Made by a program: the position numbers and the translations under genes | Notes under the pieces: model-generated | The model's database searches: none | Seen by the model: only the letters and a program-made list of their open reading frames with translations | Told to the model about the DNA's origin: nothing | In this document: in pieces, positions 3,829 to 44,074 of the stretch | Layout of the letters: each line of letters begins with the position of its first letter | How positions within the stretch are numbered: the first letter of the stretch is position 1 | Source: Acidobacteriota bacterium | Lineage (GTDB): Bacteria; Acidobacteriota; JAAYUB01; JAMOQF01 | Assembly: GCA_027064125.1 (NCBI GenBank) | Contig: JAMOQF010000080.1 | Span: 1-53,419, forward strand | Length of the DNA stretch: 53,419 nucleotides | Reading direction: 5' to 3'

Positions 3829-6111
3829 ATGGGTTTTTTAAAGAATATATTTGGTGGAAATAAAGAAGAAAATGAGAAGGAAGATCTTTCTATTATTCCA
3901 GATGTCGTTAAAGAAAAATCTATAGAAGAGGATGAAAAAGTAAAGGATGAGGAAGAGGCCGTGGTTGGGGAGGAAGTTGAAAAGGTAGAGGAAGAGATTA
4001 AAGATGTTGAAATTACTCCAGAGGAAGAGGAAATGGAGTTGGAAGAGGAAGTTGAGGGATCTCAGAGAGAAGATTCTGAAGAAGTTACGGTTGAGGAAAA
4101 TGTTGCTGAAGGGGAGGGAAACGATAATCTTGTTGAAATGGAAGAGGAATATGTAAAAGAATCTCTTTCTCCTGTGGCTGTGAAAGTAAATAGATTGAAG
4201 GAATTGTTTGAAGAAATAAAAAAGGTTGAAAGAGAATCCAGGGAGTTGTTTAAAGGGATTGAGGAAATAGAAAATAAATTGGGGCTAAAAAGTAAAGAGT
4301 TTTTTTCAATTATTAATAAAACAGATCTTATTTTAAGTAGAAGTCTTGAAGTTATTAAGGGAGAAGGAAAAGGAGGGAATGAAACTGAGATTGAGGGTTT
4401 GCTTGCCAGTGAGATTTCCACCTTTGAAGAGGATGAGGAAAGCATAAATAAACTTCTTTTAATGATTGAGGAAAAGGCTGAAAAAGTTCATAGGGAACTT
4501 GAAAAGGTTTTAAAACAGGCCCAGGCAAGTTATATGGAAGTGGATGCCCATAGGCAGGAAAAGGAAAATTATTTGAAAAAACTTCTGCTTGAAGTGGAGG
4601 AACTGGGAAAGTTAAATGAAAAATCTGCTGAAATTTATTCAGAATATTTAAATAAAAAGAAGATATTTGAAGGAGATCTTGATTCAGTAATTGCCACAAA
4701 GAAAAATATTGAAACTCAGATAACACTTTTTGAAGAGAAAAGGGAACACCTTCTGAGGGAAAAGGAGAATTTAGAAAAGAAGATAGAAGAAATTGAAAAG
4801 GAGAATGAAGGACTTGCTGAAAAGGTGAGGGAAGGAAAGGCTGAAGCCAAAAAGATGCTTGAAGAATTTGAGAAGGTGAAAAATGAATATGAAAAACTTG
4901 AATCGGAGTTAAGTGAGGAAGAAAAGAGATTGAGAAGGCTTTTAAAGGAAAGGGAAAATCTGATTGAGGATTTGAGATTTGTGGAAAAGGAAAAGGATGA
5001 ACATGTAAGCAGAAAAGAGGAACTTGAAAAGGAGATTTTGAGCGTTGTAAAAGAGATAGAGAGGTTAAAAGAGGAATATTCCGAATTTGAGGATGAGGTT
5101 GAAAAGTTAAAGAAAGAAAAAGAGAGTTTTGAAAGTGAATTTAAGGAAGATGAGAAGGTGGAAGAATTAAAAGAGAAGTTGGATACCTTGAAAGAGGCGA
5201 GGGAGAAGGTTATTGAAATGATTTCAGATAGAGAGAAGGAAATCGGAGAATTGAAAAAGGAAATTGATGCCCAGAAGAGGTTAATGGAAGATAAAAAGGG
5301 TGAAGTGGAAAAGTTAACGGAAGAAATTGAAAATGTTGAAAAAGAAAAGAAGGAACTTGAAGAAAAACTTAAAGAATTAGAAGAGAAGAAAAGTTTGCTT
5401 GAAAAGGAATTTGAGGAAATTAAAGGGGCATCTGAAAAAGAGGGTGATTATTCTGAATTGATAAGCAAATTAGAGGAAAAGAAAAAGGAAAAGGAAGAAC
5501 TTGGGGAAAAATTGAGATTGGCAGAAGAGGAATTAAAAAGATATGAGGCAGAGACAAGAGAATATACTGAGAAGATGGAGTCTGTGGTTAGGGATAGACA
5601 GAAACTTGAAGATAAGATAAAGGAATATGAGGAAAAGATATCGGAATATAGGGAAAAACTTAAAGATACAGAAAAGGGTGTAGACGTTGCAAAGGAAGAC
5701 ATGGATAGGGCAAAAAGGTTGTTTGAGGAGGAGAAGGAGAAGAAAAAAGTTGTGGTTGAAAGATTGGAGGAGGTTGAAAAGGAAGATATATCTGAAACAA
5801 CGGTGATGGAGGATGAAGAAATTGTTCTTGAGGAGGAAGTGGGTGATAAAATTGTGGAGGAGGTGGAAGTTTTACCACCTGAACACGATAAGGCTAAAAG
5901 ACTTGCAAGGGTCATAGTCTCAGATATAGTTTTGTATAACCGGGATACTCTAAATTCAGTTGCAAATCAGAGAAATTTTTATGAAGTTTTAGATGAGCCC
6001 ATTAAAAAGGCAAGAAAATATTTTGAGGAAAAGGTGCCAAAAAGTGTTATAGATGAGAAGGATTACCTAAAAGAGGCACTTGAAAAATTGAGAAAGACAT
6101 TGAAACCTTGA
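3829..6111 (+). CDS. Acidic coiled-coil protein (760 aa) with a short non-repetitive C-terminal domain
   Basis: A good RBS (AGGAGAGG) precedes the start. The N-terminus is Glu-rich, and about 550 aa show heptad-like E/K/L composition. The last ~85 aa (KAKRLARVIVSDIVLYNRDTL...) are non-repetitive. Confidence 0.75.
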   Translation: MGFLKNIFGGNKEENEKEDLSIIPDVVKEKSIEEDEKVKDEEEAVVGEEVEKVEEEIKDVEITPEEEEMELEEEVEGSQREDSEEVTVEENVAEGEGNDNLVEMEEEYVKESLSPVAVKVNRLKELFEEIKKVERESRELFKGIEEIENKLGLKSKEFFSIINKTDLILSRSLEVIKGEGKGGNETEIEGLLASEISTFEEDEESINKLLLMIEEKAEKVHRELEKVLKQAQASYMEVDAHRQEKENYLKKLLLEVEELGKLNEKSAEIYSEYLNKKKIFEGDLDSVIATKKNIETQITLFEEKREHLLREKENLEKKIEEIEKENEGLAEKVREGKAEAKKMLEEFEKVKNEYEKLESELSEEEKRLRRLLKERENLIEDLRFVEKEKDEHVSRKEELEKEILSVVKEIERLKEEYSEFEDEVEKLKKEKESFESEFKEDEKVEELKEKLDTLKEAREKVIEMISDREKEIGELKKEIDAQKRLMEDKKGEVEKLTEEIENVEKEKKELEEKLKELEEKKSLLEKEFEEIKGASEKEGDYSELISKLEEKKKEKEELGEKLRLAEEELKRYEAETREYTEKMESVVRDRQKLEDKIKEYEEKISEYREKLKDTEKGVDVAKEDMDRAKRLFEEEKEKKKVVVERLEEVEKEDISETTVMEDEEIVLEEEVGDKIVEEVEVLPPEHDKAKRLARVIVSDIVLYNRDTLNSVANQRNFYEVLDEPIKKARKYFEEKVPKSVIDEKDYLKEALEKLRKTLKP

Positions 6112-6120
6112 ATTTAAAAT

Positions 6121-7143
6121 TTGATTTTAAAAGTAGAAAAATTTTTAAAAAATTATGTGGATAGATTTGGGGTTATATCTTCCAATATCTTTCCCATTCC
6201 AATAGAAAATCCCATCTTTGAGAAGTTTGAGTATTCCTATGATAAGGGTTATCTGGACGGACTAAACTGGTTTAGTAAAAATTTAGACATAATGAGATTT
6301 CCCGCTAAATATTTTAAAGAATTTAAATCCATTGTTTTTTTCTTCTTTAGTTATTTTGATAGCACTGTAAGTCATAATTTCTCAAATTTGCCAAAAATAT
6401 CTATATATGCCCAATATGAAGATTATCACTTAACAATTAGAAATTTTTTAAAGGATCTGGGAAGAGAACTAAGGAGAGTTTTTGGTATAAAAAGTGTGGG
6501 ATTTGTGGATAGTTCTCCATTTATGGAACGGGGATTTGCTTTTTTGTGTATGGAAGATGGTTTTTTAGGCAAAAATGGACTTTTTTATTTAAAGGGTAGA
6601 GGATCCTACTTTTTTATTGGAGAACTTCTTCTGGATATAGAATCCCCACGTAATTGGGGCGCTGAAAAACCTTTTCTAAGATATTGTAAAAATTGTAATA
6701 TCTGTGTTAAGAGTTGTCCCGTTGGGGCTATTGTGGAGCCTGGAATTGTGGACAGCAGAAAGTGTATTTCATATCACACAATTGAAAACAGGGGGGTTAT
6801 CCCCAGGGAGATAGCCGTTAATTTAAATGGTTATATCTTTGGATGTGATATATGCCAGCAGGTTTGTCCTTTAAATAGGATTAATGGGAGTATTTTTAAG
6901 GGATTTACTCGTGTAAAGGAAATAGAGAAATTCGATCTTGATTGGTTTTTAGGCCTTTCTAAAAATAGATATGAGAAAATATTTAAGAAAAGTGCTTTAA
7001 GTAGGGCAAATTACTATCAAATTTTGAGAAATATTTTTATACTTGCGGAAACGGATTATATCGATGGATGTTTTGCAAAGAAAATTTATGATAAATTTGG
7101 ACACAGAAAGGAAATTTATGAACAATTGAAGGAATTAAAATGA
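6121..7143 (+). CDS. queG: Epoxyqueuosine reductase (tRNA queuosine biosynthesis)
   Basis: Two ferredoxin-type clusters are present (CKNCNICVKSCP and CDICQQVCP), plus a QueG-like N-terminal region. The start codon at 6121 is TTG, so the start is somewhat uncertain. Confidence 0.8.
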   Translation: MILKVEKFLKNYVDRFGVISSNIFPIPIENPIFEKFEYSYDKGYLDGLNWFSKNLDIMRFPAKYFKEFKSIVFFFFSYFDSTVSHNFSNLPKISIYAQYEDYHLTIRNFLKDLGRELRRVFGIKSVGFVDSSPFMERGFAFLCMEDGFLGKNGLFYLKGRGSYFFIGELLLDIESPRNWGAEKPFLRYCKNCNICVKSCPVGAIVEPGIVDSRKCISYHTIENRGVIPREIAVNLNGYIFGCDICQQVCPLNRINGSIFKGFTRVKEIEKFDLDWFLGLSKNRYEKIFKKSALSRANYYQILRNIFILAETDYIDGCFAKKIYDKFGHRKEIYEQLKELK

Positions 7144-7871
7144 GAAAATTTTCCTTTTTGCATAAGGGAGTGCTTTTAAAGGGAAAGGTAATTTTTATTT
7201 TTCTTTTTATTTTATCTTTTCTACAAATGTTGTTATTTATAAAGTTTATCCCTGAAAAATATGGTTTCTTTTACCTATTTTTTTCCATTTTTTTGCCCAT
7301 TATCACGTTATTTGTACTGTTTCTTTTTCGATTTATAAGTAAGGTGGAGTTGGGGAGTGATTACCTGGACTATAAAATGGTTGAGTGTGGCAGAATGGTA
7401 AAGGAGCATCCTCAATTTGAAATAGATTTTTCATCTCCAAATAAATTTTTTTTTATCTTAAGACGTTATAGAAATAGATATGGTTACAGGAAGAACCTCA
7501 CTATTCAAATTTTTATTTCACAAGGTGGCAAAAAAATTATTTTTGAATATCCCTTTTCAATCCTTAGAGATAAAACTTCTTTAAAAGAAAAAAACTTTGT
7601 TGGAGAAAAATTAAGAACTTTGGGAGCAGTCTCCAATGCATATTTAGATTTTACATATAGAAAAACTTCATTTTTGGTTCTATCCCTTTTTTGTGATTAT
7701 ACGGGAATTATTATTAAAAATAGGGAGAGAAGTTTATCTATCCCAGAGGTTATAAGTATAATAAAAAATTTTGAAAGATTAATGGAATACAACGATTTAC
7801 AGGTTCATATTGAGGCATTTAGAAATAGGGAGATAAATTTCAGGGAATTATTTAATAGGTGGAAGGAATAG
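7140..7871 (+). CDS. Hypothetical membrane protein
   Basis: An ATGA overlap with the queG stop suggests translational coupling. Two N-terminal hydrophobic helices are present and no motif is recognisable. Confidence 0.55.
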   Translation: MRKFSFLHKGVLLKGKVIFIFLFILSFLQMLLFIKFIPEKYGFFYLFFSIFLPIITLFVLFLFRFISKVELGSDYLDYKMVECGRMVKEHPQFEIDFSSPNKFFFILRRYRNRYGYRKNLTIQIFISQGGKKIIFEYPFSILRDKTSLKEKNFVGEKLRTLGAVSNAYLDFTYRKTSFLVLSLFCDYTGIIIKNRERSLSIPEVISIIKNFERLMEYNDLQVHIEAFRNREINFRELFNRWKE

Positions 7872-7886
7872 TATGTTTTTTCTCTG

Positions 7887-7915
7887 TTGACAAAATGGAG
7901 TAAAAATGGTAAAAA
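7887..7915 (+). promoter_or_regulatory. Putative sigma-70 promoter for tRNA-Arg
   Basis: TTGACA (7887-7892), a 17-nt spacer and TAAAAA (7910-7915) lie about 17 nt upstream of the tRNA 5' end. Confidence 0.3.
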
Positions 7916-7931
7916 GTTTGTTCAATATTTT

Positions 7932-8005
7932 GCGCCTGTAGCTCAACAGGATAGAGCATCGGATTCCTAATCCGGGGGCTGTGGGTTCGAGTCCCGCCAG
8001 GCGCA
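7932..8005 (+). tRNA. tRNA-Arg (anticodon CCT)
   Basis: It folds by hand into a cloverleaf. The acceptor GCGCCTG pairs with CAGGCGC, and the D arm is GCTC/GAGC. The anticodon stem is TCGGA/TCCGG with loop TTCCTAA (anticodon CCT). The T arm is GTGGG-TTCGAGT-CCCGC and the discriminator is A. CCA is not encoded and a T-run follows. Confidence 0.93.
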
Positions 8006-8032
8006 TTATTTTTTTTACAAAAGAGGTGTAGT

Positions 8033-8797
8033 GTGGGAAGAACAAAATTAACCAGAAAAGAGATTAAAAAGGCTGATCCCGTAACTGAATTTTTAGATGA
8101 TATTGTTGAATTTTATAAAGAAAATCAAAAGATGGTTGTTTTTGGAATTGCTGGTATTATCATTCTTGTGGCTTTAGTTACTGTAGGTACTACCATATAT
8201 AAAAACAACCTGAAAAAAAGGTCCATAGCCCTTTATGAAGCGTTAAAGAATGTGGATGGTGTGGTTAATAGTTCGGGTAAGGCAACCATTCCGGGACAGA
8301 AGGTCTTTAAAAGCGATAAAGAGAAATATGAGGCTGAGTATAAAGCTTTTAAATCTGTGTATGATAAATATTCCTCTTCAACTGAGGGTAAGATAGCTCT
8401 CTATTTTATGGCAGATGCCATGTATCATCTTGGAAAGAGCAAAGATGCCCTCCATATGCTTTCAAAAATAGATCTTGATTTTGATTCCTATATAGGGAGT
8501 TATTATAATTTTCAAATTGCGGAACTTTATAGGGCAATTGGTGAATATGACAAGGCTATGGAAATTTACAACAAATTGTTGCAGACATCTGTTCAAATAC
8601 CCGAAGATACAATTAGGTATAGTAAAGTGTTGTGTTTAAGGGATATGGGTAAGGAAATGGAGGAGTACAGGGAACTTAAAAAATTTAATGAAGATCTGAT
8701 AAAAGAGTCTCAAGAGACGGGGAATTCCCCTTATTATTTAACTCTGATAAGGGTTAGGTATCAATTATTGGATGCAATTTATGGAGAGAGAAAATAA
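8033..8797 (+). CDS. Membrane-anchored TPR-like protein (YfgM-like architecture)
   Basis: A GTG start is preceded by AAGAGGTG. One N-terminal TM helix is followed by helical-repeat sequence. The position upstream of yceD-rpmF is consistent with this call. Confidence 0.55.
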   Translation: MGRTKLTRKEIKKADPVTEFLDDIVEFYKENQKMVVFGIAGIIILVALVTVGTTIYKNNLKKRSIALYEALKNVDGVVNSSGKATIPGQKVFKSDKEKYEAEYKAFKSVYDKYSSSTEGKIALYFMADAMYHLGKSKDALHMLSKIDLDFDSYIGSYYNFQIAELYRAIGEYDKAMEIYNKLLQTSVQIPEDTIRYSKVLCLRDMGKEMEEYRELKKFNEDLIKESQETGNSPYYLTLIRVRYQLLDAIYGERK

Positions 8798-9318
8798 TGA
8801 AGGTCAATTTTGAAAAATTAAAAGAAGGGAGAAATAGTCTAACTTTTGATATCCCTTCTAAGGATGTGGCCTTTGATTATAAGGGGTATAAATTAAACGG
8901 AAATTGGCACATAAATGCCGATTTTTTTAAAAATAGTAGGGGAGAAATATCACTTATTGGGGATCTGGAAGGGAAAATTACTTTAATATGTGACAGGTGT
9001 TTGAAGGAATTTGAGAGAAAGGTTTTTTTGAAGTTTGAATACTTTTTTGTGCCGTTTGAAGAGGTGGAGGTCAAAGAGGAAGGAGATTTAAATGATGGTG
9101 TAGTTGAAACCTTTTATAGAGATAATTTCGTGGAAATGGAGGATATTCTGAGTGAACAGGTAATACTCAGTTTACCGGATAAGGTGTTGTGTGATGAGAG
9201 TTGCAGGGGTATCTTAAAAGAAGATGGAAGTCCTTATATTGAGGAAGAAGGTGAAGAAAAACCTCTTGATAGTAGATTGCTACCTCTTCTGGAGATAAAA
9301 AAAAGATTAAAAAAATAA
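8797..9318 (+). CDS. yceD: YceD/DUF177 family protein (large-subunit rRNA accumulation protein)
   Basis: CDRC and CDESCRG cysteine motifs and an acidic C-terminus are present. The synteny immediately upstream of rpmF-plsX is canonical. A TAATG overlap links it to the upstream gene. Confidence 0.8.
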   Translation: MKVNFEKLKEGRNSLTFDIPSKDVAFDYKGYKLNGNWHINADFFKNSRGEISLIGDLEGKITLICDRCLKEFERKVFLKFEYFFVPFEEVEVKEEGDLNDGVVETFYRDNFVEMEDILSEQVILSLPDKVLCDESCRGILKEDGSPYIEEEGEEKPLDSRLLPLLEIKKRLKK

Positions 9319-9336
9319 TTTAAGGAGAATATAATT

Positions 9337-9528
9337 ATGGCTCAACCTAAAAGGAGACATTCACACGCAAGGAGCAGAAAGAGAAGAGCACATTATCATC
9401 TCTTTGAAAAGAGTCTTTCTGTGTGTCCCAATTGTAAAGAACTAAAGTTACCCCATAGGGTTTGTCCCAATTGCTTTACTTATAAGGGAAAAGTAGTTAT
9501 TGAAATAAAAGAAAAAGAAGAAAAATAA
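9337..9528 (+). CDS. rpmF: 50S ribosomal protein L32
   Basis: The N-terminus MAQPKRRHSHARSRKRRAH is typical of L32. A CPNC...CPNC zinc ribbon and an AAGGAGA RBS are present. Confidence 0.95.
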   Translation: MAQPKRRHSHARSRKRRAHYHLFEKSLSVCPNCKELKLPHRVCPNCFTYKGKVVIEIKEKEEK

Positions 9529-9535
9529 TTTTTTT

Positions 9536-10576
9536 GTGAAGATGGGTGAAAAACAGGTAAAAATTGTACTTGATCTAATGGGAAGTGATAATTTTCCCAT
9601 ACCTGAACTTGAAGGGGTAAGGAGTGCCTTAAAGGAGGAAAAAGATCTCTTTGTCTACCTTGTGGGAAAAAGAGAAATCTATGAAAAATATAGGGACTTT
9701 TTTAAAAATGATCAGATAGAATTTGTGGAGGCAGAAGAACATATTACCATGAATGAAAGTCCCATAGCCGCCATTAGAAAGAAGAAGAAATCTTCTATAA
9801 GAATAGGCCTTTCTCTCATCAAGAAGGGAAAGGCACATGGTTTTGTTTCTGCTGGTAATACCGGTGCCATCATGGCTTTGTCAAAACTCTTGCTTGGGAT
9901 TGTTGAAGGTGTTGATAGGCCTGCTCTTGCCACAGCTGTTCCCAGTATAAAGGGGAGTACCATAATTTTGGATGTGGGAGCAAATGTGGAGTGTAAACCC
10001 ATTCATCTTGAGCAGTTTGCCATAATGGGGAGTATCTATTCTGAGATAATCTTTGGAATTTCCAATCCCCGGGTGGGCTTACTAAATATTGGAGAGGAAG
10101 AGATAAAGGGTAATGATTTAATGAAAGATGTTCATAAGGCCTTAAGTGTTTCTTCTCTAAATTTTGTTGGAAATGTTGAGGGAAAGGATGTTTACACAGG
10201 TGATGTGGATGTTGTGGTGTGTGATGGATTTACTGGAAATGTTGCCTTAAAGATTAGTGAGGGTGTTATTTCTGCTTTAATGTATTTATTAAAAAAGGAA
10301 ATAAATTCCCATTTTACTACCAAAATAGGTGCTCTTTTGATCAGGAAGGCTTTTAAAAATTTAAAGAAGGATATAGATTATTCTGAGTATGGGGGGGCTC
10401 CTCTCCTTGGCATTAAATATCCAGTTATTATCTGTCATGGAAGATCGAATGACAATGCCATAAAGAATGGATTGAAATTTTGTAAACTTTTGTACGAAAG
10501 GGAAATTCCTATGAAAATAGAGAATAAGATAAAGGAATTTATGAATAAAATTGAAAGTGTAAAGGAGTTGTCATGA
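9536..10576 (+). CDS. plsX: Phosphate acyltransferase PlsX
   Basis: The PlsX-family sequence includes GFVSAGNTGA and VVCDGFTGNVALK, and the rpmF-plsX synteny is classical. The start could be GTG at 9536 or ATG at 9542. Confidence 0.92.
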   Translation: MKMGEKQVKIVLDLMGSDNFPIPELEGVRSALKEEKDLFVYLVGKREIYEKYRDFFKNDQIEFVEAEEHITMNESPIAAIRKKKKSSIRIGLSLIKKGKAHGFVSAGNTGAIMALSKLLLGIVEGVDRPALATAVPSIKGSTIILDVGANVECKPIHLEQFAIMGSIYSEIIFGISNPRVGLLNIGEEEIKGNDLMKDVHKALSVSSLNFVGNVEGKDVYTGDVDVVVCDGFTGNVALKISEGVISALMYLLKKEINSHFTTKIGALLIRKAFKNLKKDIDYSEYGGAPLLGIKYPVIICHGRSNDNAIKNGLKFCKLLYEREIPMKIENKIKEFMNKIESVKELS

Positions 10577-16729: not shown

Positions 16730-17485
16730 ATGGCTTTTATAGAATTAATAGATGTTCATAAATCCTTCGGAGACAATAAAGTGCTCCGGGGGATTAATTT
16801 ATCCATAGAAAAAGGGGAGAGCCTTGTCATCTTAGGGAAAAGTGGAATAGGTAAGTCTGTTACCCTCCTTGTTTTAACTCGACTTCTTCCACTTGATAGG
16901 GGAAAGGTTATAATTAATGGAATTGATACCACAGATCTTCCAGAAGATAAGTTAATACCCATTAGGAAGAAGATATCTTATGTATTTCAGTCGGGAGCCC
17001 TTTTTGATTCACTTACCGTGTATGAAAATATAGCTTTTCCTATGATTGGAGAGGGATATGATGAAGATGAGATTGATAAAAGGGTTTTTGATATAATGGA
17101 CTTATTGAATATTTCGGAATTCTGGGATTTATATCCCGATGAAATAAGTGGTGGGGTTAAAAAAATTGTTTCAATAGGTAGGGCTCTTGCCGCAAATCCC
17201 GATTGCATTCTTTATGATGAACCAACTACAGGAATCGATCCCTATGCCGCAAAAAAGTTAAGCGAAGTTATAAGGAGGATCAATATTGATATGGGAATTA
17301 CTACTATTCTTGTGACCCACGATATGAGGTGTGCAAAAATAGTTGCCGATAAAATTGCGTTTTTACATGAAGGGGTGATCTATTTCCATGGTTCCTTTGG
17401 AGAATTTGTGGAAAGTGATTTGCCTGTTCTTGAGGAATTCAAAGGTTCGCTCCCATATATGGCTAAATATTTGAAGGGGGGTTAA
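16730..17485 (+). CDS. ABC transporter ATP-binding protein (MlaF-like, no permease adjacent)
   Basis: It has Walker A GKSGIGKS, signature ISGGVKK, Walker B ILYDEPTTGIDP and H-loop VTHDM. Confidence 0.85.
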   Translation: MAFIELIDVHKSFGDNKVLRGINLSIEKGESLVILGKSGIGKSVTLLVLTRLLPLDRGKVIINGIDTTDLPEDKLIPIRKKISYVFQSGALFDSLTVYENIAFPMIGEGYDEDEIDKRVFDIMDLLNISEFWDLYPDEISGGVKKIVSIGRALAANPDCILYDEPTTGIDPYAAKKLSEVIRRINIDMGITTILVTHDMRCAKIVADKIAFLHEGVIYFHGSFGEFVESDLPVLEEFKGSLPYMAKYLKGG

Positions 17486-18423
17486 TCACAACATTTATGG
17501 AATAGTTTCTCGGAAAGATCTTCAAATATTTGGGTATCCACAAGTTTTTCAACCATATTTTGAGGTATTTTTTCATATCCCAGAAAGCCGCCGGCCATGG
17601 TCCCTGTCAAAAATCCAGTTGTGTCGGAATTATCTCCCCATTTTACGACATTTTTTATGGGATCCATAAAGTTTTTGGAATATTTTAAGAAAGAATAAAT
17701 TGATGCGGGAAGGGTCTCAAGTATACTGTAACCTGTGCCAATTTGCATGAGTGCTTCTTTGCTGTTATCACCTGAAAGTTTTTTTATCCATCTTATGATT
17801 TCTGCATAGTCTGAATCCACTCCTTCCATAAAGGATGCCGTTTCTTCTACAATTTCCCCTAAGGGAATATCTTCCTTGATAAAAATGGATCTCAGAAAAT
17901 ACCCAAAACATATCCCTCCTGCAATAACCTTTGGGAAAGTATAAATTATTCTCGTAAGTTCCTTTATGTATTCTATCATTTTATCCAGATCATGGTAAAA
18001 GCATACTACTATTGGTGGGACAAAGGCAAGGGCTTTACTACCATCTCTAAAACTTCCAGAATCTTTCCAGGGTTTACCAGATTTTAGGTTTTTACATGCT
18101 GCAAGAACTGACCTACCTGGACTTATCCATTCGTCATTTTCATATATCTCAATCATTTTATTGGCTATTCTTTCGGGATCTGGTTCTCCTGTTTCGATAA
18201 TGGTTTCAGAAGTTAACATCATGATCTGGGTTTCATCCGTATATTGTCCGGGAGGAAAGGGTGCATTTAAATGATTTTCATGGGGTTTGGTGTAGAAGTT
18301 TATTTCCTCTCCGTAGAGATTTTTTACCTGAAGCCAGTGTAAATTTTTAAATGGCATTCCCACTGCATTTCCAATGGCTCCACCAAGTATCAGACCTCTG
18401 AATCTATCAATTTTACATACCAT
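17482..18423 (-). CDS. ADP-ribosylglycohydrolase family protein
   Basis: ARH-family landmarks are present: N-terminal GGAIGNAVGMPF, YTDETQ and C-terminal GDNSDTTGFLTGTMAGG. Its stop codon overlaps the stop of the convergent ABC gene. Confidence 0.75.
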   Translation of the reverse strand: MVCKIDRFRGLILGGAIGNAVGMPFKNLHWLQVKNLYGEEINFYTKPHENHLNAPFPPGQYTDETQIMMLTSETIIETGEPDPERIANKMIEIYENDEWISPGRSVLAACKNLKSGKPWKDSGSFRDGSKALAFVPPIVVCFYHDLDKMIEYIKELTRIIYTFPKVIAGGICFGYFLRSIFIKEDIPLGEIVEETASFMEGVDSDYAEIIRWIKKLSGDNSKEALMQIGTGYSILETLPASIYSFLKYSKNFMDPIKNVVKWGDNSDTTGFLTGTMAGGFLGYEKIPQNMVEKLVDTQIFEDLSEKLFHKCCD

Positions 18424-20795: not shown

Positions 20796-20857
20796 ATTAA
20801 TCCCATGGGGGTTATACAGGGGTTAAAAATTTTTCATGTCAGACAAATAAAATTTCA

Positions 20858-21170
20858 TGGTGGGGAATGTGTGAAGGTAAATTCAACCTGACACCTCTAA
20901 TTTTTACATAACATATTTCAAATTCATTTCTCAAATTCAGGTCTGACCCCACCTCTTTTTTCCCTTTTCTTTTTATCCAGATCTTGCCTGACACCTTTTT
21001 AATATCATTTTCATTTTCAGGTCTTTTTCAGGTTTGTCCCCATTTTCCATCTCTTTAATTTATTTCCAATTTGCCTACCCTAAAAACCCCCTAAAGATTT
21101 ATAGGATGAAAAAGGGATTTTCTTTAATCGCTGGATTTTGCCAGAGGATTTTGTCTTTGCCAAAATTTTA
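20858..21170. repeat. Non-coding repeat copy A (~313 bp) of a diverged direct duplication
   Basis: It shares ordered blocks with copy B. These are TGGTGGGGAATGTGTGAAGGT (20858), CCTGACAC (20887, 20987), TCTCAAATTCAGGTCTG (20929-20945), ACCCCCTAAAGATTTATAGGA (21086-21106) and a TTTGCCAGAGGATTTT...TTGCCAAAATTTT tail. An extra partial block TACCCCTTAAAGGCTTATAGAA lies at 21199-21220. Confidence 0.75.
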
Positions 21171-21355
21171 TTTGTTCTTCTGTATTACCCACCCTATATA
21201 CCCCTTAAAGGCTTATAGAAGTGAAATGGAGATGCTTAATCGTTAGTATTTTCCAGAAAACTTTATTTTTAACAAATTTTTAATTTCTTTCTTTATTTTA
21301 TTTGCTACTCTAAAAGTCATTTAAAAAATTTTTTTCTTTCTTTCCTATAAACCTC

Positions 21356-21681
21356 TGGTGGGGATTGTGTGGAGGTTATTTTTGCCTGACATTTTTTCCC
21401 AAATCCCAAATTTTCCAAACTTCAAACTTTCAAACTTTGCCTGACACTTTTTCACTTTTTGCCCAACACTCTTTCCTAAATTTCAAATCTCAATCCCAAA
21501 ATCTCAAATTGTACCTGACACCTTTTTAAACTTTTTAAAAGTTAATCTCAAATTCAGGTCTGTTCCCTTTTCCATTTATTTCCTCCCCCAAATACCCCCT
21601 AAAGGTTTATAGAAGATAAAAAGAATTTTTCTTAAATCATTTGATTTCTGCCAGAAAATTTTAAATCATTGCCAGTTTTGG
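21356..21681. repeat. Non-coding repeat copy B (~326 bp) of the same diverged direct duplication
   Basis: Its blocks follow the same order as copy A. They are TGGTGGGGATTGTGTGGAGGT (21356), CCTGACAT/CCTGACAC (21385, 21440, 21514), TCTCAAATTCAGGTCTG (21546-21562), ATACCCCCTAAAGGTTTATAGAA (21592-21614) and a TTTCTGCCAGAAAATTTT...TTGCCAGTTTTGG tail. Confidence 0.75.
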
Positions 21682-21923
21682 TTTTTTTTATTTACCTTCT
21701 AAAATGCCATTAAAAACATGGTAAAAGTTGATTAACTTAATTTTTATAAATTTTTTCCATATGCGGTTTCTCAAGTAGTTTCTTTAAATTACGTAAAACA
21801 TGGAAAATAAATTTAAAAGATATGAATTAAGCCAGATATTTGCCATGAAATTTGAACAGGAAGTTGGTAAATTAAAATCTCTTCTCTTATAATCCCTTGC
21901 AACACAAAATTTATGGTATGTCT

Positions 21924-23318
21924 CTATTCTTCTTTATCTTCAATTCCATACTGTTTTAACTTTAGTCTGAGGGTTTTTCTGTCTATTCCAAGAATTCTTG
22001 CAGCCTTTGATTTGTTGTTTTTGACTGCTTTAAGTACTTTAAGAATATACATTTTTTCTACTTCATAAAGGGGCGGAAAATTTTCTTCAGGGATGGCTAA
22101 AATTATTTCTTTTGTATTGTCTCTTTTTATAATCTCTCCATTTTTTCTAATTTTTTCAGGTATGTGTTCTACATCTATAATGTTTGTTGGAGAAAGGGTT
22201 GCAGCTGATTCAACTACATTTTCGAGTTCCCTAACATTTCCAGGCCAATCATAGTTCATAAATATGTTTAGTACTTCCTTTGTTATTTTTTTAGGTGGTA
22301 TTTTATTTTTTAGAGAATAGTTTTTAAGAAAAAAATCCACAAGAAGAGGGATATCTTCTCTTCTTTCTCTTAATGGGGGAAGATTTATTTGTACCACATT
22401 TAATCTGTAATACAAATCTTCCCTGAACTTGTTTTCCTTAACCATTTTTTCAAGGTCTTTATTTGTTGCAGAGATTATCCTCACATCAACTTTAAAGGAT
22501 TTTGTGGCTCCAAGCCTCATTATTTCCCCTTCCTGTAGAAATCTAAGGAGTTTAGTCTGCATATTTAGGGGCATTTCCCCTATTTCATCTAAAAAACAGG
22601 TTCCCCCATTTGCCGCTTCTAAGATTCCCATTTTGGGCTTTTCAGCACCTGTAAAGGCTCCTTTTTCATAACCAAATAATTCGCTTTCAAGTAAATTTTC
22701 AGGAATCGCACCACAATTTATCGCCAGGAAGGGCCAATTTCTTCTATAGGAGTTTTCATGAATGGATCTTGCCACAAGTTCCTTTCCTGTTCCGCTCTCT
22801 CCTTGAATTAAAACTGGTGTATTGCTGTTTGCAACCCTACCAATTAACTTAAATACTTCATGCATTGCTTCAGATTTTCCAATGAGTCTTCGGGTATATC
22901 CCATTGCCATATCTGGCACACTTACATTTTGTGAATGGTCAATAATTTCTTTTTTCTCCAGTGCATTTCTTACCTTTTGTCTTATTTTTTCCATTGAAAA
23001 GGGTTTTATCAGAATATCAAAGGCGCCTTCTTTAATTGCTTCGATGGTGACATGACTTTCACCAAAGGCCGTTATTACAAGAAAAAGTTGGGTTGGTTTA
23101 TATTCTCTACACTTTTTTATGAGTTCAATACCACTCATACCTCCCATTTTTACATCGGTTATAATCAGGTGAAATTTCTCTGATTTGCACCTTTCCAGAG
23201 CTTCTTCTCCACTTGATACATCGACAACTTCAAAGTTTTCTTTAAGTAGAGCTTCTTTTAAAATTTCCCTTCCTACTTCATCGTCATCTGCTATTAGTAT
23301 TCTTTTTTTTCTATTCAT
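21924..23318 (-). CDS. Sigma-54-dependent response regulator (NtrC family: REC, AAA+, Fis-type HTH)
   Basis: The REC domain contains the phospho-acceptor context LIITDVKM. The AAA+ domain has Walker A GESGTGKE and the sigma-54 contact loop GAFTGA. The C-terminal HTH is KSKAARILGIDRKTLRLKLKQYGI. No histidine kinase is adjacent. Confidence 0.92.
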   Translation of the reverse strand: MNRKKRILIADDDEVGREILKEALLKENFEVVDVSSGEEALERCKSEKFHLIITDVKMGGMSGIELIKKCREYKPTQLFLVITAFGESHVTIEAIKEGAFDILIKPFSMEKIRQKVRNALEKKEIIDHSQNVSVPDMAMGYTRRLIGKSEAMHEVFKLIGRVANSNTPVLIQGESGTGKELVARSIHENSYRRNWPFLAINCGAIPENLLESELFGYEKGAFTGAEKPKMGILEAANGGTCFLDEIGEMPLNMQTKLLRFLQEGEIMRLGATKSFKVDVRIISATNKDLEKMVKENKFREDLYYRLNVVQINLPPLRERREDIPLLVDFFLKNYSLKNKIPPKKITKEVLNIFMNYDWPGNVRELENVVESAATLSPTNIIDVEHIPEKIRKNGEIIKRDNTKEIILAIPEENFPPLYEVEKMYILKVLKAVKNNKSKAARILGIDRKTLRLKLKQYGIEDKEE

Positions 23319-23367
23319 TTTTAAACTCCACGGTTATTGTAAAATTATAACAGATATACTTTTTCTT

Positions 23368-23388
23368 TGTGGAGAAAAAATCTCCACA
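23368..23388. promoter_or_regulatory. Perfect palindrome TGTGGAGA-N5-TCTCCACA, candidate enhancer (UAS) or operator site
   Basis: It has 8-bp perfect inverted arms separated by AAAAA. It lies in the divergent spacer, about 50 bp upstream of the activator gene start and about 48 bp upstream of the -24 element of the dnaK promoter. Confidence 0.45.
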
Positions 23389-23424
23389 TGGAACATTTTT
23401 CAACCGAAAAATAGTGAAATTTTC

Positions 23425-23440
23425 TGGCATATTTTTTGCT
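23425..23440 (+). promoter_or_regulatory. Sigma-54 (-24/-12) promoter upstream of dnaK
   Basis: TGGCATATTTTTTGCT matches the TGGCAC-N5-TTGCW consensus. GG (23426-27) and GC (23438-39) are exactly 12 nt apart. It is oriented toward dnaK, 36 nt upstream of its ATG, and lies next to a sigma-54 activator gene. Confidence 0.65.
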
Positions 23441-23475
23441 TTATAACTTTATGAAAGTTATTTGAGGAGGAAAAA

Positions 23476-25422
23476 ATGGGAAAAATAATAGGAATAGACC
23501 TGGGTACAACAAACTCAGTTGTGGCTGTTATGGAAGGAGGAAATCCTGTAGTTATCCCCAATGAAGAGGGTGCCAGGACAACTCCTTCTGTGGTGGCGTT
23601 TACAAAGGATAATGAGAGACTTGTGGGACAAATTGCAAAGAGACAGGCAATAACAAATCCTGAAAATACAATATTTTCAATAAAGAGATTTATGGGAAGG
23701 AAATTTGCAGAAGTGGGGCAGGAGATGAAACTTGTTCCCTATAAGATTGTTTCCGGTCCCAATGGAGATGTGAGAGTTGATATAAAGGGAAAACTCTATT
23801 CACCACCAGAGATTTCTGCCATGATTTTGCAGAAACTTAAAAAAGCCGCTGAAAATTATCTTGGGGAAAAAATAACAGATGCGGTAATTACAGTTCCAGC
23901 ATATTTTAATGATTCCCAGAGACAGGCAACCAAGGAAGCGGGACAGATTGCTGGATTGAATGTTAGAAGAATTATAAATGAGCCTACAGCAGCTGCTCTT
24001 GCCTATGGACTTGATAAGAAAAAAGATGAAAAGATAGCAGTCTTTGATTTTGGAGGGGGAACATTTGACATAAGTATTTTGGAAGTTGGAGAAGGGGTTG
24101 TTGAGGTGAAGTCCACAAATGGAGATACCCATCTTGGTGGAGATAATATTGACCAGAGGATTATGGAATGGCTTATTGAAGAATTCAAAAAGGAACAGGG
24201 AATAGATCTTTCAAATGACAGGATGGCACTTCAGAGACTTAAGGAAGCTGCGGAAAAGGCAAAGATAGAACTTTCTACAATGATGGAAACAGAGATTAAT
24301 CTACCGTTTATTACTGCTGATTCTGCTGGTCCTAAGCACTTAAATATAAAGTTAACCAGATCCAAATTGGAGCAGATGATTGAGGATATATTGCAAAGGA
24401 CAATAGAACCATGTAAGAGGGCCCTTGAAGATGCTAAATTATCTCCATCAGATATTGACGAGGTGGTGCTTGTGGGTGGCTCCACGAGGATTCCCAGAGT
24501 GCAACAACTTGTTAAAGAATTTTTTGGAAAGGAACCATGTAAAGGAGTAAATCCCGATGAAGTGGTTGCCGTTGGTGCTGCCATTCAAGGTGGAGTTTTA
24601 GGTGGAGAGGTAAAAGATGTTTTATTACTTGATGTAACGCCACTTTCCCTTGGAATAGAGACGTTGGGGGGAGTTTTTACAAAACTTATTGAGAGAAATA
24701 CCACAATACCTACCAAGAAAACTGAAATTTTTACAACAGCTGAGGACAACCAATCTACGGTTGAAATACATGTTCTTCAGGGGGAGAGACCTCTTGCAAA
24801 GGACAACAAAAGTCTTGGAAGATTTCATCTAACTGGGATACCGCCAGCCCCAAGAGGTGTTCCACAGATTGAAGTCACCTTTGATATAGATGCAAATGGT
24901 ATATTAAATGTTTCTGCAAGGGATAAAGCAACTGGAAAAGAACAGAAAATAACCATTACTTCTTCTAGTGGACTTACAGAAGAGGAGATCAAAAGGATGA
25001 TGGAAGAGGCAAAGAAGTATGAAGAAGAGGATAAAAAGAGGAAGGAAGCCATTGAGATTAGAAATATTGTGGATGGACTTGCCTATAATCTTGAAAAATT
25101 GATTAAAGAAAAGAGAAATGATATAAATCCATCATATGTTTCTGAGGCTGAGCAATTGATAAATGAAGCGAAAGAAAAAATTAAGAGTGATGTTCTGGAT
25201 AAGGCAATTTATGAAGGCTTGAAGAGTAAATTGGAGGCAATATCTCAGAAAATAGCCACTGAACTCTATCAGAAAACTGGTGGTGGATCTCAGGGTGGTC
25301 CAACAGGTGGAGCAGGCTTTAATACCTCTGGTGAAGGTACTTCTTCAGGTGGCGGTGGCAGTGAATCACAAAAGGGTGGAGATGATGATGTAATTGATGC
25401 TGAATATAGGGAGATTAATTAG
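23476..25422 (+). CDS. dnaK: Molecular chaperone DnaK (Hsp70)
   Basis: The N-terminus [17 protein letters not shown] is unmistakably Hsp70, with further motifs DFGGGTFD and [10 protein letters not shown]. It has a Gly-rich tail ending [13 protein letters not shown] and a GAGGAGG RBS. No grpE or dnaJ is adjacent. Confidence 0.98.
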
Positions 25423-25454: not shown

Positions 25455-25481
25455 GGGAGAGTTTTATACTCTCCCTTTTTT
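25455..25481 (+). terminator. Rho-independent terminator after dnaK
   Basis: The stem pairs GGGAGAGT with ACTCTCCC around a 5-nt loop and is followed by TTTTTT. Confidence 0.8.
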
Positions 25482-25524
25482 GATTTTTATGATATAATTC
25501 TCTAAGAAGATAAGGAGAATTGAT

Positions 25525-26883
25525 ATGAATAAAAGAAAGTTGTTTTTTTACCTTGTAATTTTTGTGCTTTCTTCATTTGTGTTTTCGGGAACCATAAAAA
25601 TTTCTGCACTTGTGGATGGTTCTGATTACATAAAAATAAAGGGAAATAATATATGGGTGGAGCACAGGAATTTTGATCCAATTAAGGACCTCAAGTATAA
25701 ATTTGATCCTCCTGAAGGACTGCCAGATAGAACTGTAAATGTGAAATTAAAAAAAGAGAAGGGAACTGGATCTATTACCATTGTAGATAAACCCAGTAGA
25801 GATAATAACTATACTTTGACAATTCTGGTTGACAATGACAATGAAGAAGTCTATCCGCAACTTTACAAGTTTACGGTTTACTGGAAAGAGGTATCCTCTA
25901 TATATTCTGGCTTTGATAAAGATAAATATGACTATGTTCACTGGAGAGGTAGTGTAGATGGTAGAGATATATTAATTTTTAATGGCAGGAGTGTTGAGAT
26001 AAAGAGAGAACGCGGAAAAGAAGTGGAAAATGTGAGGTATTCTTTTTCAAATAGGATTCCCCGAAAGAGAATAAATGTATATCTCAAGAAAGTAGATGGA
26101 AGGGGAAATGTAGAAGTAATTGAGAATCCAAGTTATGAAAATAATTATTCAATAAAGGTACTTGTTGATGATGGCCCATATAGTGGCAGGGATGTGTATG
26201 ATTTTTATGTCTATTGGGAAAAGGATAGATATTCAAATGAAGATTATGATTTTGTATGGGAAGGAAAGGTTGATGGAGCAGATTATATAATAGTTAGAGG
26301 TAGCCGTGTTTTTGTAAAGCATTTAAGGGCTAAACCCATTAGAGATATGCACTATAAGTTTTACTCCTATCTACCCGAGAAACCGCAGGATGTGGAGTTG
26401 ATTGTTTTAAGAGGTAGGGGTAAGGTTAAAATAGTTGAGCAACCATCTTTTTTGAACAGATATGGAGTAAAAATTCTAATTGATGATAGCAAAGGTGGAG
26501 ATTACAGATATAAAATTGCCCTTAGATGGGAAGGTGGTAAGAGTATTTCTAAGTATAAGACCCCATCTGTTGTTAAAAAGAAATCTGTAAATGGTGGAGT
26601 TATTAGATGGCGGGGATATGTGGATGGCGTTGTGGAACTGAGGTTTAGAAGGAATTCAGTTGTTGCGGGAGTAATTAGAGGAAGAAAGTTGAAAAATGTG
26701 AAAACTTCATTTTTTAAATCTCTACCCCGTAAAAAGGTAAAAGTGAGCCTAAACAAAATAAGTGGTAGGGGAAGGGTTGAGATCCTTCAGCAGCCAACAA
26801 AGTACAATGACTATTCTGTTGTTGTAAGGATTATTGATGATAAAAAGGGTATGGGATTATATGAATTTGAACTATATTGGTAG
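25525..26883 (+). CDS. Secreted protein built from four tandem ~95-100-aa repeats, unknown function
   Basis: It has an N-terminal signal-like hydrophobic segment. Four homologous modules span about aa 23-120, 135-231, 241-335 and 358-452. They share the pattern W-x-G-x-VDG-x-D...Y-x-F...LP...GRG-x-V-x-I...P...N-Y...IDD...Y-x-F-x-(V/L)-(Y/R)-W. Confidence 0.8.
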   Translation: MNKRKLFFYLVIFVLSSFVFSGTIKISALVDGSDYIKIKGNNIWVEHRNFDPIKDLKYKFDPPEGLPDRTVNVKLKKEKGTGSITIVDKPSRDNNYTLTILVDNDNEEVYPQLYKFTVYWKEVSSIYSGFDKDKYDYVHWRGSVDGRDILIFNGRSVEIKRERGKEVENVRYSFSNRIPRKRINVYLKKVDGRGNVEVIENPSYENNYSIKVLVDDGPYSGRDVYDFYVYWEKDRYSNEDYDFVWEGKVDGADYIIVRGSRVFVKHLRAKPIRDMHYKFYSYLPEKPQDVELIVLRGRGKVKIVEQPSFLNRYGVKILIDDSKGGDYRYKIALRWEGGKSISKYKTPSVVKKKSVNGGVIRWRGYVDGVVELRFRRNSVVAGVIRGRKLKNVKTSFFKSLPRKKVKVSLNKISGRGRVEILQQPTKYNDYSVVVRIIDDKKGMGLYEFELYW

Positions 26884-43172: not shown

Positions 43173-44072
43173 TTAACTTGTTTTCATTGCAAAGGCAATG
43201 GAGAGAAATTTTGTCTCTTCAGAATCTGCTCTTGATGTAAGTACGATTGGTCTTTTTGCCCCCACAATAATTCCGGCTGTTTTAAAACCTCCCAGATAAC
43301 TTAAAACCTTATAAAAGCAGTTCCCAGTTTCAATTTCCGGAGCTATGGCAATATCTGCATCTCCACCAACTTCACTTTTGATTCCCTTTACCTCACAGGA
43401 CTTTTTTGAAAAGGCGTTGTCCACAGCAAGTGGTCCATCTATTATACATCCCTTTATCTGTCCCCTTTTGTTCATCATTGTGATTATGGCTGCATCTCCT
43501 GTGCAGGGCATATTTTCAGGATTTACCTTTTCAACTGCTGCAAGAAGTGCAACCTTTGGTATATCTATCCCCAATTTGTGTGCCGCTTCAACACTGTTTT
43601 TTATGATATCTATTTTTTGATTTAAATTGGGAGCAATATTCATTGCAGCATCACTCATGAGAATTAATTTGTGATATGCGGGAACTTCAAATGCTGCAAG
43701 ATGGGATAATAGCCTTTCTGTCCTGAACCCATTTTCTTTATCTAAAACTCCCTTTAAAAGGGTTGCAGTTGAACAGAGCCCCTTCATCAAGACATCTGCC
43801 TTTCCTTCTTTTACAAGAGAAATTGCTCTTTTTACCGATTCCCTTTCATCTTTTTCATCAACAATTTCAAATCTGTCCTTTTCTACATTTAAATTTCTTA
43901 ATATCTCTTCAATTTTTTCCCGTGGCCCCACAAGAATTCCATCTGCGATGTCTTCTTCTTTGGCCTTTAATAGGGCTTCGATTACATCCCTGTCGTGGGC
44001 ATATGCAACTGCAATTTTTTTTGTCTTGCTTCCCTTTACCTCTTTTATCAATTGGTCAAAGTTCCTAATCAT
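43173..44072 (-). CDS. ptb: Phosphate butyryltransferase (phosphate acyltransferase family)
   Basis: This ~300-aa PTA/PTB-family sequence sits immediately downstream of butyrate kinase. Its RBS lies within the end of buk. Confidence 0.82.
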   Translation of the reverse strand: MIRNFDQLIKEVKGSKTKKIAVAYAHDRDVIEALLKAKEEDIADGILVGPREKIEEILRNLNVEKDRFEIVDEKDERESVKRAISLVKEGKADVLMKGLCSTATLLKGVLDKENGFRTERLLSHLAAFEVPAYHKLILMSDAAMNIAPNLNQKIDIIKNSVEAAHKLGIDIPKVALLAAVEKVNPENMPCTGDAAIITMMNKRGQIKGCIIDGPLAVDNAFSKKSCEVKGIKSEVGGDADIAIAPEIETGNCFYKVLSYLGGFKTAGIIVGAKRPIVLTSRADSEETKFLSIAFAMKTS

Positions 44073-44074
44073 TC

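Follow-up and report, generated by a model that had tools for sequence, protein, structure and literature searches.

Bacterial Hsp70 genes are, in textbook accounts, controlled by sigma-32, by HrcA and its operator CIRCE (controlling inverted repeat of chaperone expression), by HspR and its operator HAIR (HspR-associated inverted repeat), or by CtsR. Here, we analyzed a dnaK gene that appears to follow another route, carried by contig JAMOQF010000080.1 of an Acidobacteriota bacterium (assembly GCA_027064125.1); the whole stretch of 53,419 nucleotides is called the window below. We consider it probable that this dnaK is transcribed from a sigma-54 promoter of the -24/-12 type and activated at tandem dyads by the product of the divergent adjacent gene, an NtrC-type enhancer-binding protein (EBP) with receiver (REC), AAA+, and helix-turn-helix (HTH) domains. 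An initial annotation of the window had proposed this promoter and this activator, and comparison with relatives lends support to both, through conserved islands in the dnaK upstream spacers and through a genome in which the two genes lie far apart.

Sigma-54 promoters at chaperone genes have been described in other phyla. In Flavobacterium psychrophilum, mapped transcription starts lie behind a -24/-12 motif, SM4, at dnaK, groESL, grpE-dnaJ, htpG, lon, and clpB; the authors mention three candidate EBPs and name neither an activator nor an enhancer site for the chaperone promoters (PMC9723704). The locus studied here is similar in that a predicted -24/-12 promoter stands directly before dnaK and would tie Hsp70 to sigma-54 instead of sigma-32, HrcA, or HspR; it differs in belonging to another phylum and in offering specific candidates for the activator and its site, a genetically linked EBP of the REC type and a tandem dyad that is conserved. 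According to a 2025 survey based on position-specific scoring matrices, predicted sigma-54 promoters are enriched at the DnaK, DnaJ, GrpE, GroEL, and IbpA clusters of orthologous groups of Bacteroidota and Planctomycetota; Acidobacteria are not mentioned in its text (PMC12316311). In Chlamydia, a sigma-54 promoter has been reported at the dnaK-containing operon, in tandem with a sigma-66 promoter (PMC8762339). Chlamydia and the window share a sigma-54 promoter, predicted in our case, before a dnaK-containing unit, together with a two-component EBP. However, Chlamydia retains HrcA/CIRCE and the sigma-66 promoter, whereas dnaK in the window stands alone, with no CIRCE, hrcA, or recognizable sigma-70 promoter.

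Further comparisons concern the activator. In Myxococcus xanthus, the heat shock gene lonD is activated directly by the HsfB/HsfA phosphorelay, in which a histidine kinase (HsfB) phosphorylates an NtrC-like regulator (HsfA; Ueki & Inouye 2002, as cited in PMC9109919). According to this secondary account, HsfA resembles the window's activator as an NtrC-like response regulator EBP serving a heat shock gene, phosphorylation being presumed in our case; dnaK is not among the HsfA targets named there, which are lonD and genes for secondary metabolites or pili. The hsfA operon also encodes HsfB, described there as a hybrid kinase, whereas the window has no kinase gene and its sister clades encode a small protein of the DHp (dimerization and histidine phosphotransfer) type. 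The best solved relatives of the activator are Aquifex aeolicus NtrC1 and NtrC4 (PDB 4l4u, 1ny5, and 3dzd; E values of 8e-98 to 9e-86), which share its REC-AAA+-HTH architecture and, unlike the window's activator with its predicted target dnaK, serve genes unrelated to chaperones. In the Desulfovibrio sigma-54 regulome paper, "heat shock" occurs only in the title of a reference and "chaperone" only in connection with type III secretion, and there is no chaperone functional class.

Within the phylum, the cultured acidobacterium Thermotomaculum hydrothermale (AP017470.1, locus L128) has a dnaK product 74% identical to that of the window. Its gene stands in a row with dnaJ, a MerR-family (HspR-like) gene, and a sigma-70-family gene (positions 6001 to 10310 of the locus), behind a promoter-like TTGACA...TATATT sequence, with no GG-N10-GC element and no adjacent EBP gene. 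Therefore, the regulatory design of dnaK varies within Acidobacteriota. A literature search on sigma-54, dnaK, and heat shock in Acidobacteria found no published account. Sigma-54 control of Hsp70 genes is unusual yet documented, and the design proposed here is not unprecedented. The description of this design as atypical by the initial annotation consequently holds against the textbook regulators, but not against the sigma-54 chaperone promoters already documented or predicted in other phyla. The new element supported by our comparisons is that dnaK can be assigned, in an uncultured Acidobacteriota-affiliated lineage, to a specific subfamily of EBPs and to a tandem dyad as its putative enhancer. 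The predicted module, from the activator gene over the two dyads and the -24/-12 promoter to dnaK, is compact and is conserved across an Acidobacteriota-affiliated clade of metagenome-assembled genomes (MAGs). If this assignment is true, the EBP subfamily and its operator would make the proteostasis regulon of uncultured lineages predictable.

The dnaK-activator spacer and its elements

The features of the locus, in order along the window, are as follows.

21924 to 23318, minus strand: NtrC-type EBP of 464 aa with REC, sigma-54 AAA+ (GAFTGA), and Fis-type HTH domains (Pfam)
23344 to 23373, minus strand: putative sigma-70-like promoter of the activator gene (consensus scan, 10/12 matches)
23368 to 23388, no strand: predicted upstream activator site 1, a perfect dyad, TGTGGAGA-N5-TCTCCACA, with a conserved core
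23389 to 23404, no strand: predicted upstream activator site 2, a degenerate dyad, TGGAACATTTTTCAAC, forming a conserved block in alignment A1
23425 to 23440, plus strand: predicted sigma-54 -24/-12 promoter element TGGCAT-ATTTT-TTGCT (TGGCATATTTTTTGCT), directed at dnaK (consensus match)
23464 to 23470, plus strand: dnaK ribosome-binding site GAGGAGG (sequence reading), with GGAGG kept in the spacers of relatives
23476 to 25422, plus strand: dnaK, encoding a canonical Hsp70 of 648 aa (Pfam HSP70, 2e-269)
25455 to 25482, plus strand: intrinsic-terminator-like hairpin GGGAGAGT-TTTAT-ACTCTCCC with a T-run (terminator scan)

Direct rereading of the sequence reproduced what the initial annotation had placed in this region, i.e., the start codons of the minus-strand activator gene (ATG at 23318) and of dnaK (ATG at 23476), the 157-bp spacer between them (23319 to 23475), the palindrome at 23368 to 23388, and the -24/-12 element, whose spacing is canonical and which faces dnaK. 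In this element, GG at 23426-27 and GC at 23438-39 give the exact GG-N10-GC spacing, and the GC lies 36 nt before the dnaK ATG. Its dinucleotide spacing, its orientation and distance, and its conservation at orthologous loci are all those of a sigma-54 promoter. The transcription start is predicted near 23449-23451, with a leader of ~26 nt. Taken on its own, the match in the window is only weakly significant: the pattern TGGCAY-N5-TTGCW has a single exact match in 53.4 kb, with a mean of 0.09 matches per shuffled sequence and at least one match in 8/100 shuffles, and sites with one mismatch are not significantly enriched (5 versus 2.6 expected). These remaining one-mismatch sites were discarded as chance-level matches, most of them intragenic. 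One of them, TGGCATTCCCACTGCA (18352 to 18367, plus strand), lies inside the 5' part of the minus-strand ADP-ribosylglycohydrolase gene and faces a RelA/SpoT-like gene ~150 nt downstream; sites of such quality occur at chance frequency.

Site 1 has the core GGAGA-N5-TCTCC at 23371-23385, with N5 being AAAAA, and its 21-nt palindrome occurs once in the window and in 0/100 shuffles. The center of site 2 lies 19 bp from that of site 1, and its conserved block reads TTGGrAc-TTTT in alignment A1. In two relatives (loci L083 and L084), a perfect GGAGA-N5-TCTCC also forms the second site, at a distance of 20 bp from the first. Relative to the predicted start, the two predicted dyads of the window's sub-clade are centered at about -53 and -72. 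The left arm of site 1 also overlaps the -35 element of the activator gene's putative promoter, which consists of a -35 TCCACA at 23373-23368 and a TG-extended -10 TATAAT at 23349-23344; a TATAAT-like -10 can be read at the equivalent position in the L083, L084, and L086 spacers. Because its predicted sites overlap the -35 of its own sigma-70-type promoter, the activator probably also regulates its own expression.

The activator protein matches the Pfam families Response_reg (PF00072, 7e-27), Sigma54_activat (PF00158, 1e-75), AAA_lid_14, and HTH_8, and contains GESGTGKE and GAFTGA, the latter found only once in a six-frame motif search of the window. The domain architecture given to the regulator by the initial annotation, i.e., REC, AAA+ with GAFTGA, and Fis-type HTH, is thereby borne out. 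We aligned 15 sequences, consisting of 10 orthologues and 5 paralogues (alignment A3), in which D12, D55, T83, K105, the Walker A motif (GESGTGKE), the Walker B DE, and GAFTGA are invariant. Both its AAA+ domain with GAFTGA and its receiver residues place the protein in the response regulator class of EBPs, and its HTH_8 match (3e-14) stands alongside the conserved tandem dyads as its predicted sites. It scores below all NCBIfam equivalog cut-offs, among them NtrC (454 bits versus 558.6) and AtoC (452 versus 714); the ZraR, GlrR, NtrX, LuxO, and PrsR cut-offs are likewise not reached.

DnaK, in turn, exceeds the NCBIfam equivalog cut-offs of PRK00290 (1031 bits versus 648) and TIGR02350 (1008 versus 823). 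Downstream of its gene, the hairpin at 25455-25475 has 8 pairs, 5/8 of them G-C, followed by TTTTTTGATT; this terminator-like hairpin with its T-run suggests that dnaK is probably monocistronic. As the initial annotation had noted for the immediate neighborhood of dnaK, hrcA, grpE, and dnaJ are missing, and Pfam searches of large open reading frames (ORFs) found none of them, nor hspR or any MerR-family gene, anywhere in the window. The CIRCE-like repeat, also said to be lacking, has 0 matches in the window even with up to 3 mismatches. HAIR matches occur elsewhere in the window at chance frequency and are absent at dnaK, the CtsR box has 0 matches, and no sigma-32 motif (CTTGAA-N13-17-CCCCAT) was found. 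Hence, the searches at dnaK returned no sign of control by HrcA/CIRCE, HspR/HAIR, CtsR, or sigma-32. A consensus scan of the spacer gave no usable plus-strand sigma-70-like promoter, its sole match (23462-23489) spanning the dnaK start codon.

An RNA thermometer or other 5'-untranslated structure was rejected as a means of dnaK control, since the predicted leader folds no better than its shuffles (z scores from -1.4 to +0.2); an Rfam scan of the whole window gave one tRNA and nothing else. Separately, a perfect 8-bp inverted repeat, ATAACTTT-ATG-AAAGTTAT, spans the predicted dnaK transcription start (23443-23461). Its RNA fold is not significant, and a related TGAAAGT core is present in two close relatives (L081 and L082) and absent from more distant clades. 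A second regulator may use this repeat as an operator, or it may be a chance feature.

Orthologous loci and a split gene pair

A protein search separated the activator orthologues (P0002 to P0021, 54 to 77% identity) from the bulk of the paralogues, at no more than 51% identity. The named members of the orthologue group are all "Acidobacteriota bacterium" MAGs, and the named DnaK relatives belong to Acidobacteriota, including Blastocatellia, Bryobacteraceae, and Thermotomaculum. Orthologue loci were located by exact-protein matching; a search of genome contigs with the activator was dominated by the generic FGYEKGAF pattern and yielded only paralogues of at most 48% identity. We found dnaK divergent from the activator gene in L081, L082 (77%), L083, L084 (60%), L088 (59%), and L086/L087 (57%). 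Loci carrying EBPs of 51% and 48% identity (L125 and L126) have unrelated neighbors and no dnaK, and an Hsp70 gene is present in 2/80 more distant EBP loci (L048 and L055).

Seven dnaK upstream spacers were extracted and aligned (alignment A1). They range from 157 to 275 bp, differ strongly in base composition, and cannot be aligned outside two islands. Of the 30 invariant columns, all but two isolated ones belong to the dyad block or to TGGCA-N6-TTGC. The first island reads GGAGAA-WWWW-TCTCCA-n-TTG-rrA-n-TTTT, i.e., the dyad with a weaker second dyad directly after it. The second is TGGCA-N6-TTGC, whose GC lies 36-49 nt from the dnaK ATG in the seven spacers. Since the gap between dyad and promoter drifts from 37 to 108 nt, the arrangement fits a putative enhancer and a promoter rather than one composite site. 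The recognition helix of the activator, NKSKAAR-LG(I/L)DRKTLR(L/M)KLKQYG, is essentially invariant in the orthologues and differs in paralogues of 48-49% identity, so that its conservation among orthologues matches that of the dyad.

In another relative, GCA_018001935.1, the activator orthologue (L085) and dnaK (L127) are ~198 kb apart on one 259-kb contig. Upstream of this dnaK, the dyad GGTGCAATTTTCTCCAGATGGGACTTTTTGTATCCC is kept with one arm degenerate (GGTGC-N5-TCTCC), and the -24/-12 element TTTGGCAATTGTTTTGCT lies 39 nt before the ATG, whereas no dyad or -24/-12 element was found in 11 kb around the L085 activator gene. As judged from this comparison, the cis elements belong to dnaK, because they stay with it when the pair is split, and it can be assumed that an activator encoded elsewhere acts in trans. 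The motif pair of the initial annotation is hence clearly conserved at orthologous dnaK loci, both in the seven aligned spacers and in this split locus.

A further orthologue (54% identity, L124) keeps the motifs on a contig that stops before dnaK, with the dyad and TGGCAGGTTTTTTGCA at the contig end. Positions 1-257 of this locus form a long perfect inverted duplication over the predicted dnaK promoter (...CGGTTTGGCAGGTT/CCCCAGTGCAAAAAACCTGCCAAACCG...), which is most likely an assembly hairpin artifact; therefore, L124 counts only as partial evidence.

Gene order around the pair varies. The ADP-ribosylglycohydrolase gene abuts the 3' end of the activator gene in L083 to L088 and L124 and is displaced by 3.5 kb in the window (17482-18423), and the PTA_PTB and acetate/butyrate-kinase genes that flank dnaK in L083 and L084 lie ~18 kb away in the window (43173-45166). 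By this comparison of gene orders, the window locus is rearranged and the dnaK-activator pair kept.

Candidate phosphotransfer partners and possible further targets

No sensor kinase is encoded nearby, as the initial annotation had stated: a Pfam search found no histidine kinase (HK) domains (HisKA or HATPase_c) in the window or in the flanks of L081 and L082, and tblastn with the HK-like genes of the sister clades found no homologue in the window (best E value of at least 0.39). Two families of such HK-like genes were recognized in the sister clades.

First family, on the activator strand, with a conserved His: L083 4253 to 5011; L084 4253 to 5008; L088 4262 to 4990; L124 258 to 1004
Second family, with a conserved His: L083 7996 to 8805; L084 8009 to 8803; L086 4109 to 4831; L088 8041 to 8757

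Genes of the first family, of ~240-255 aa, lie between the activator gene and dnaK, directly upstream of the activator gene; unlike the other clades with activators of 54-60% identity, L086/L087 have no HK-like gene in this position. Since the gene is present in sister clades, its absence is a feature of the window's sub-clade. The second family is encoded a few kb off, past ADP-ribosylglycohydrolase, DivIC, and CutA1 genes. Both families comprise cytoplasmic proteins of ~240-270 aa with a conserved His (AHDTG or HETxN), AHDTG being the H-box of the first family, which is tiny in databases (a homologue search returned 3 proteins). Pfam and NCBIfam gave only weak HisKA matches (in L083 and L088 for the first family and in L083 for the second), and neither family has a recognizable HATPase_c domain. 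A normal kinase was rejected as a description of the first-family protein, whose alignment shows none of the N, G1, and G2 boxes. Proteins of the two families may act on the activator as degenerate kinases, as phosphatases, or in phosphotransfer. In the sister clades, the DHp-domain protein, whose gene is predicted to be cotranscribed with that of the activator, is likely to be the activator's partner.

To look beyond dnaK, metagenome contigs were scanned for GGAGA-W5-TCTCC followed, after a gap of 36-96 nt that leaves out the 108-nt class, by TGGCA-N6-TTGC. The 35 matches are mostly coding or unrelated, with one recurrent gene family accounting for 9 to 10 of them. The only informative match (L110, positions 2480-2600, minus strand) lies on Ga0209164_1000028, a contig of 425 kb and 66% G+C that is unrelated to the window, which has 34.9% G+C. 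There, the dyad CTGGAGAAAAATTCTCCAC and then the -24/-12-type element TTTCTGGCATGCATCTTGC (TGGCATGCATCTTGC) stand ~55 nt before the likely start codon of grpE, which is followed by clpB. Together with an hsp20 gene downstream of dnaK in L088, this grpE-clpB operon hints that the dyad and sigma-54 design may serve more than one chaperone operon.

Sigma-54 promoters may also underlie two further matches, at a gene for a secreted protein (L113) and a FliM-like gene (L107). In L113 (355-478), the intergenic dyad GGAGAATTATTCTCCACTTTTTT and TTGCTGGCATATAAGTTGC lie 39 nt before a gene whose secreted product of 187 aa has a high content of W, R, and Q; this site may be a target of a related EBP, or a coincidence. 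Among the more distant loci, L048 (519-4001, JANXPS010000149.1, from a MAG labeled Deltaproteobacteria) has a paralogous EBP gene (41% identity), then a ~140-aa ORF, and then dnaK on the same strand. The candidate ORF resembles a stand-alone receiver and is preceded by a weak -24/-12-like sequence, GGGCACGGAAGTTGTA, and the DnaK is 74% identical to that of the window. L048 may be an independent EBP-dnaK linkage.

Proposed mechanism, rival explanations, and flanking sequences

A sigma-54 promoter stays closed until an ATP-hydrolyzing EBP remodels the polymerase complex. At the window's locus, the sigma-54 holoenzyme would form a closed complex at 23425-23440, and the activator, most likely the divergent REC-AAA+-HTH protein, would bind the two adjacent dyads as dimers. 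Phosphorylation of Asp55, presumably in response to proteotoxic or heat stress, would then lead to assembly of the activator ring, which would contact sigma-54 through its GAFTGA loops and open the promoter by ATP hydrolysis. Transcription would begin near 23450 and give a ~26-nt leader carrying the GAGGAGG ribosome-binding site.

Several observations weigh against this mechanism. No rpoN gene was found in the window by a six-frame RpoN-box search and by Pfam searches of large ORFs, so that sigma-54 is implied only indirectly, by an activator with an intact, conserved GAFTGA. The dyads lie 37-39 nt upstream of the -24 element in the window's sub-clade, which is unusually close, as most characterized enhancer sites are found farther away, at about -80 to -150. 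A sole sigma-54 promoter for a housekeeping chaperone implies continuous activator activity, or else a further promoter or dnaK copy, and the mechanism, if true, leaves to be explained how a promoter class without basal activity can sustain an essential chaperone. The HK-like partners of the sister clades have no recognizable HATPase_c domain and no N, G1, or G2 boxes in their alignment; with no recognizable ATP-binding motifs in the partner, a simple kinase-to-regulator story is unproven. As for the regulon, one chaperone operon among the scan matches has a chance probability of ~0.1 by rough estimate, which makes this evidence thin and suggestive only.

The simplest rival, in which the -24/-12 match and the palindrome are functionless chance features of an AT-rich spacer, draws on the shuffling results for the window itself, where 0.09 exact promoter matches are expected and one-mismatch sites are not enriched. 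Yet the palindrome appeared in none of the 100 shuffles, and both elements keep their position and orientation without exception in seven spacers and recur at the split dnaK, at low to high G+C and between flanks that cannot be aligned. These conservation data effectively refute the chance reading, to which we assign next to no probability. It is also conceivable that dnaK relies mainly on an unrecognized promoter of the sigma-70 family, of housekeeping or sigma-32-like type, with the -24/-12 element as an accessory or tandem promoter that serves a special condition only, as at Chlamydia hrcA-grpE-dnaK. The usual constant need for dnaK and the silence of sigma-54 promoters without an activator speak for such an arrangement, as does the tandem sigma-66/sigma-54 precedent (PMC8762339), and weak -10 elements in AT-rich spacers can escape a consensus scan. 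Nevertheless, the spacer offers neither a usable plus-strand sigma-70-like promoter nor a sigma-32 motif, and nothing is conserved outside the two islands, even in the GC-rich spacers, where an AT-rich -10 would stand out; we therefore regard this explanation as very unlikely.

A rival that is still improbable, albeit less so, accepts the sigma-54 promoter and denies that the neighbor is its activator, with the dyads being operators for autoregulation or for another protein, and with another EBP activating dnaK. The overlap of the dyad with the -35 of the regulator's own sigma-70-like promoter would agree with this, and the L085 orthologue, which has neither dnaK nor a dyad nearby, indicates that the regulator does not need the site beside its own gene. 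The same split pair, however, argues against a purely autoregulatory operator, since it is dnaK, and not the regulator, that retains the dyads. Moreover, tandem dyads one to two helical turns apart before a -24/-12 promoter are typical of EBPs in the classic layout, conservation of the recognition helix parallels that of the site, and eight further loci keep the linkage of activator and dnaK. For these reasons, we prefer the divergent REC-AAA+-HTH protein as the probable activator of dnaK. A wider scenario, which we find unlikely as a whole, is that this uncultured Acidobacteriota clade replaced sigma-32, HrcA, and HspR by a sigma-54 heat shock circuit, in which the EBP subfamily dedicated to GGAGA-N5-TCTCC would be the master activator of dnaK, hsp20, and grpE-clpB. 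Stress would then be sensed by the degenerate DHp-only partner or by the EBP itself, e.g., through DnaK titration, and the partner would have been lost in the window's sub-clade.

The sequences on either side of the gene pair showed two further features. Between the 3' ends of the RelA/SpoT-like and activator genes, 1.1 kb (20806-21924) contains no ORF longer than 70 aa. It is made up of degenerate repeat modules, with TGGTGGGGA-TGTGTG-AGGT...CCTGACA present twice, ~500 bp apart, (T)TGCCTGACAC(C) present about five times, and CCCCCTAAAGgTTTATAGaAG three times, and it has no Rfam match. Because the two flanking genes abut directly in L081 and L082, this region looks like an insertion specific to the window. 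On the other side, just past the dnaK terminator, a plus-strand gene (25525-26883) encodes a protein of 452 aa that matches no family in Pfam or NCBIfam. Its N-terminal segment is signal-like, and a unit of ~110 aa (W-x-G-x-VDG..., Y-x-F-x-(V/L)-Y-W) occurs four times as an internal repeat; the gene has an apparent promoter of its own (TTGATT...TATAAT). L081 and L082 carry homologous genes (451 and 453 aa) at the same place, with a DUF2582 gene after them.

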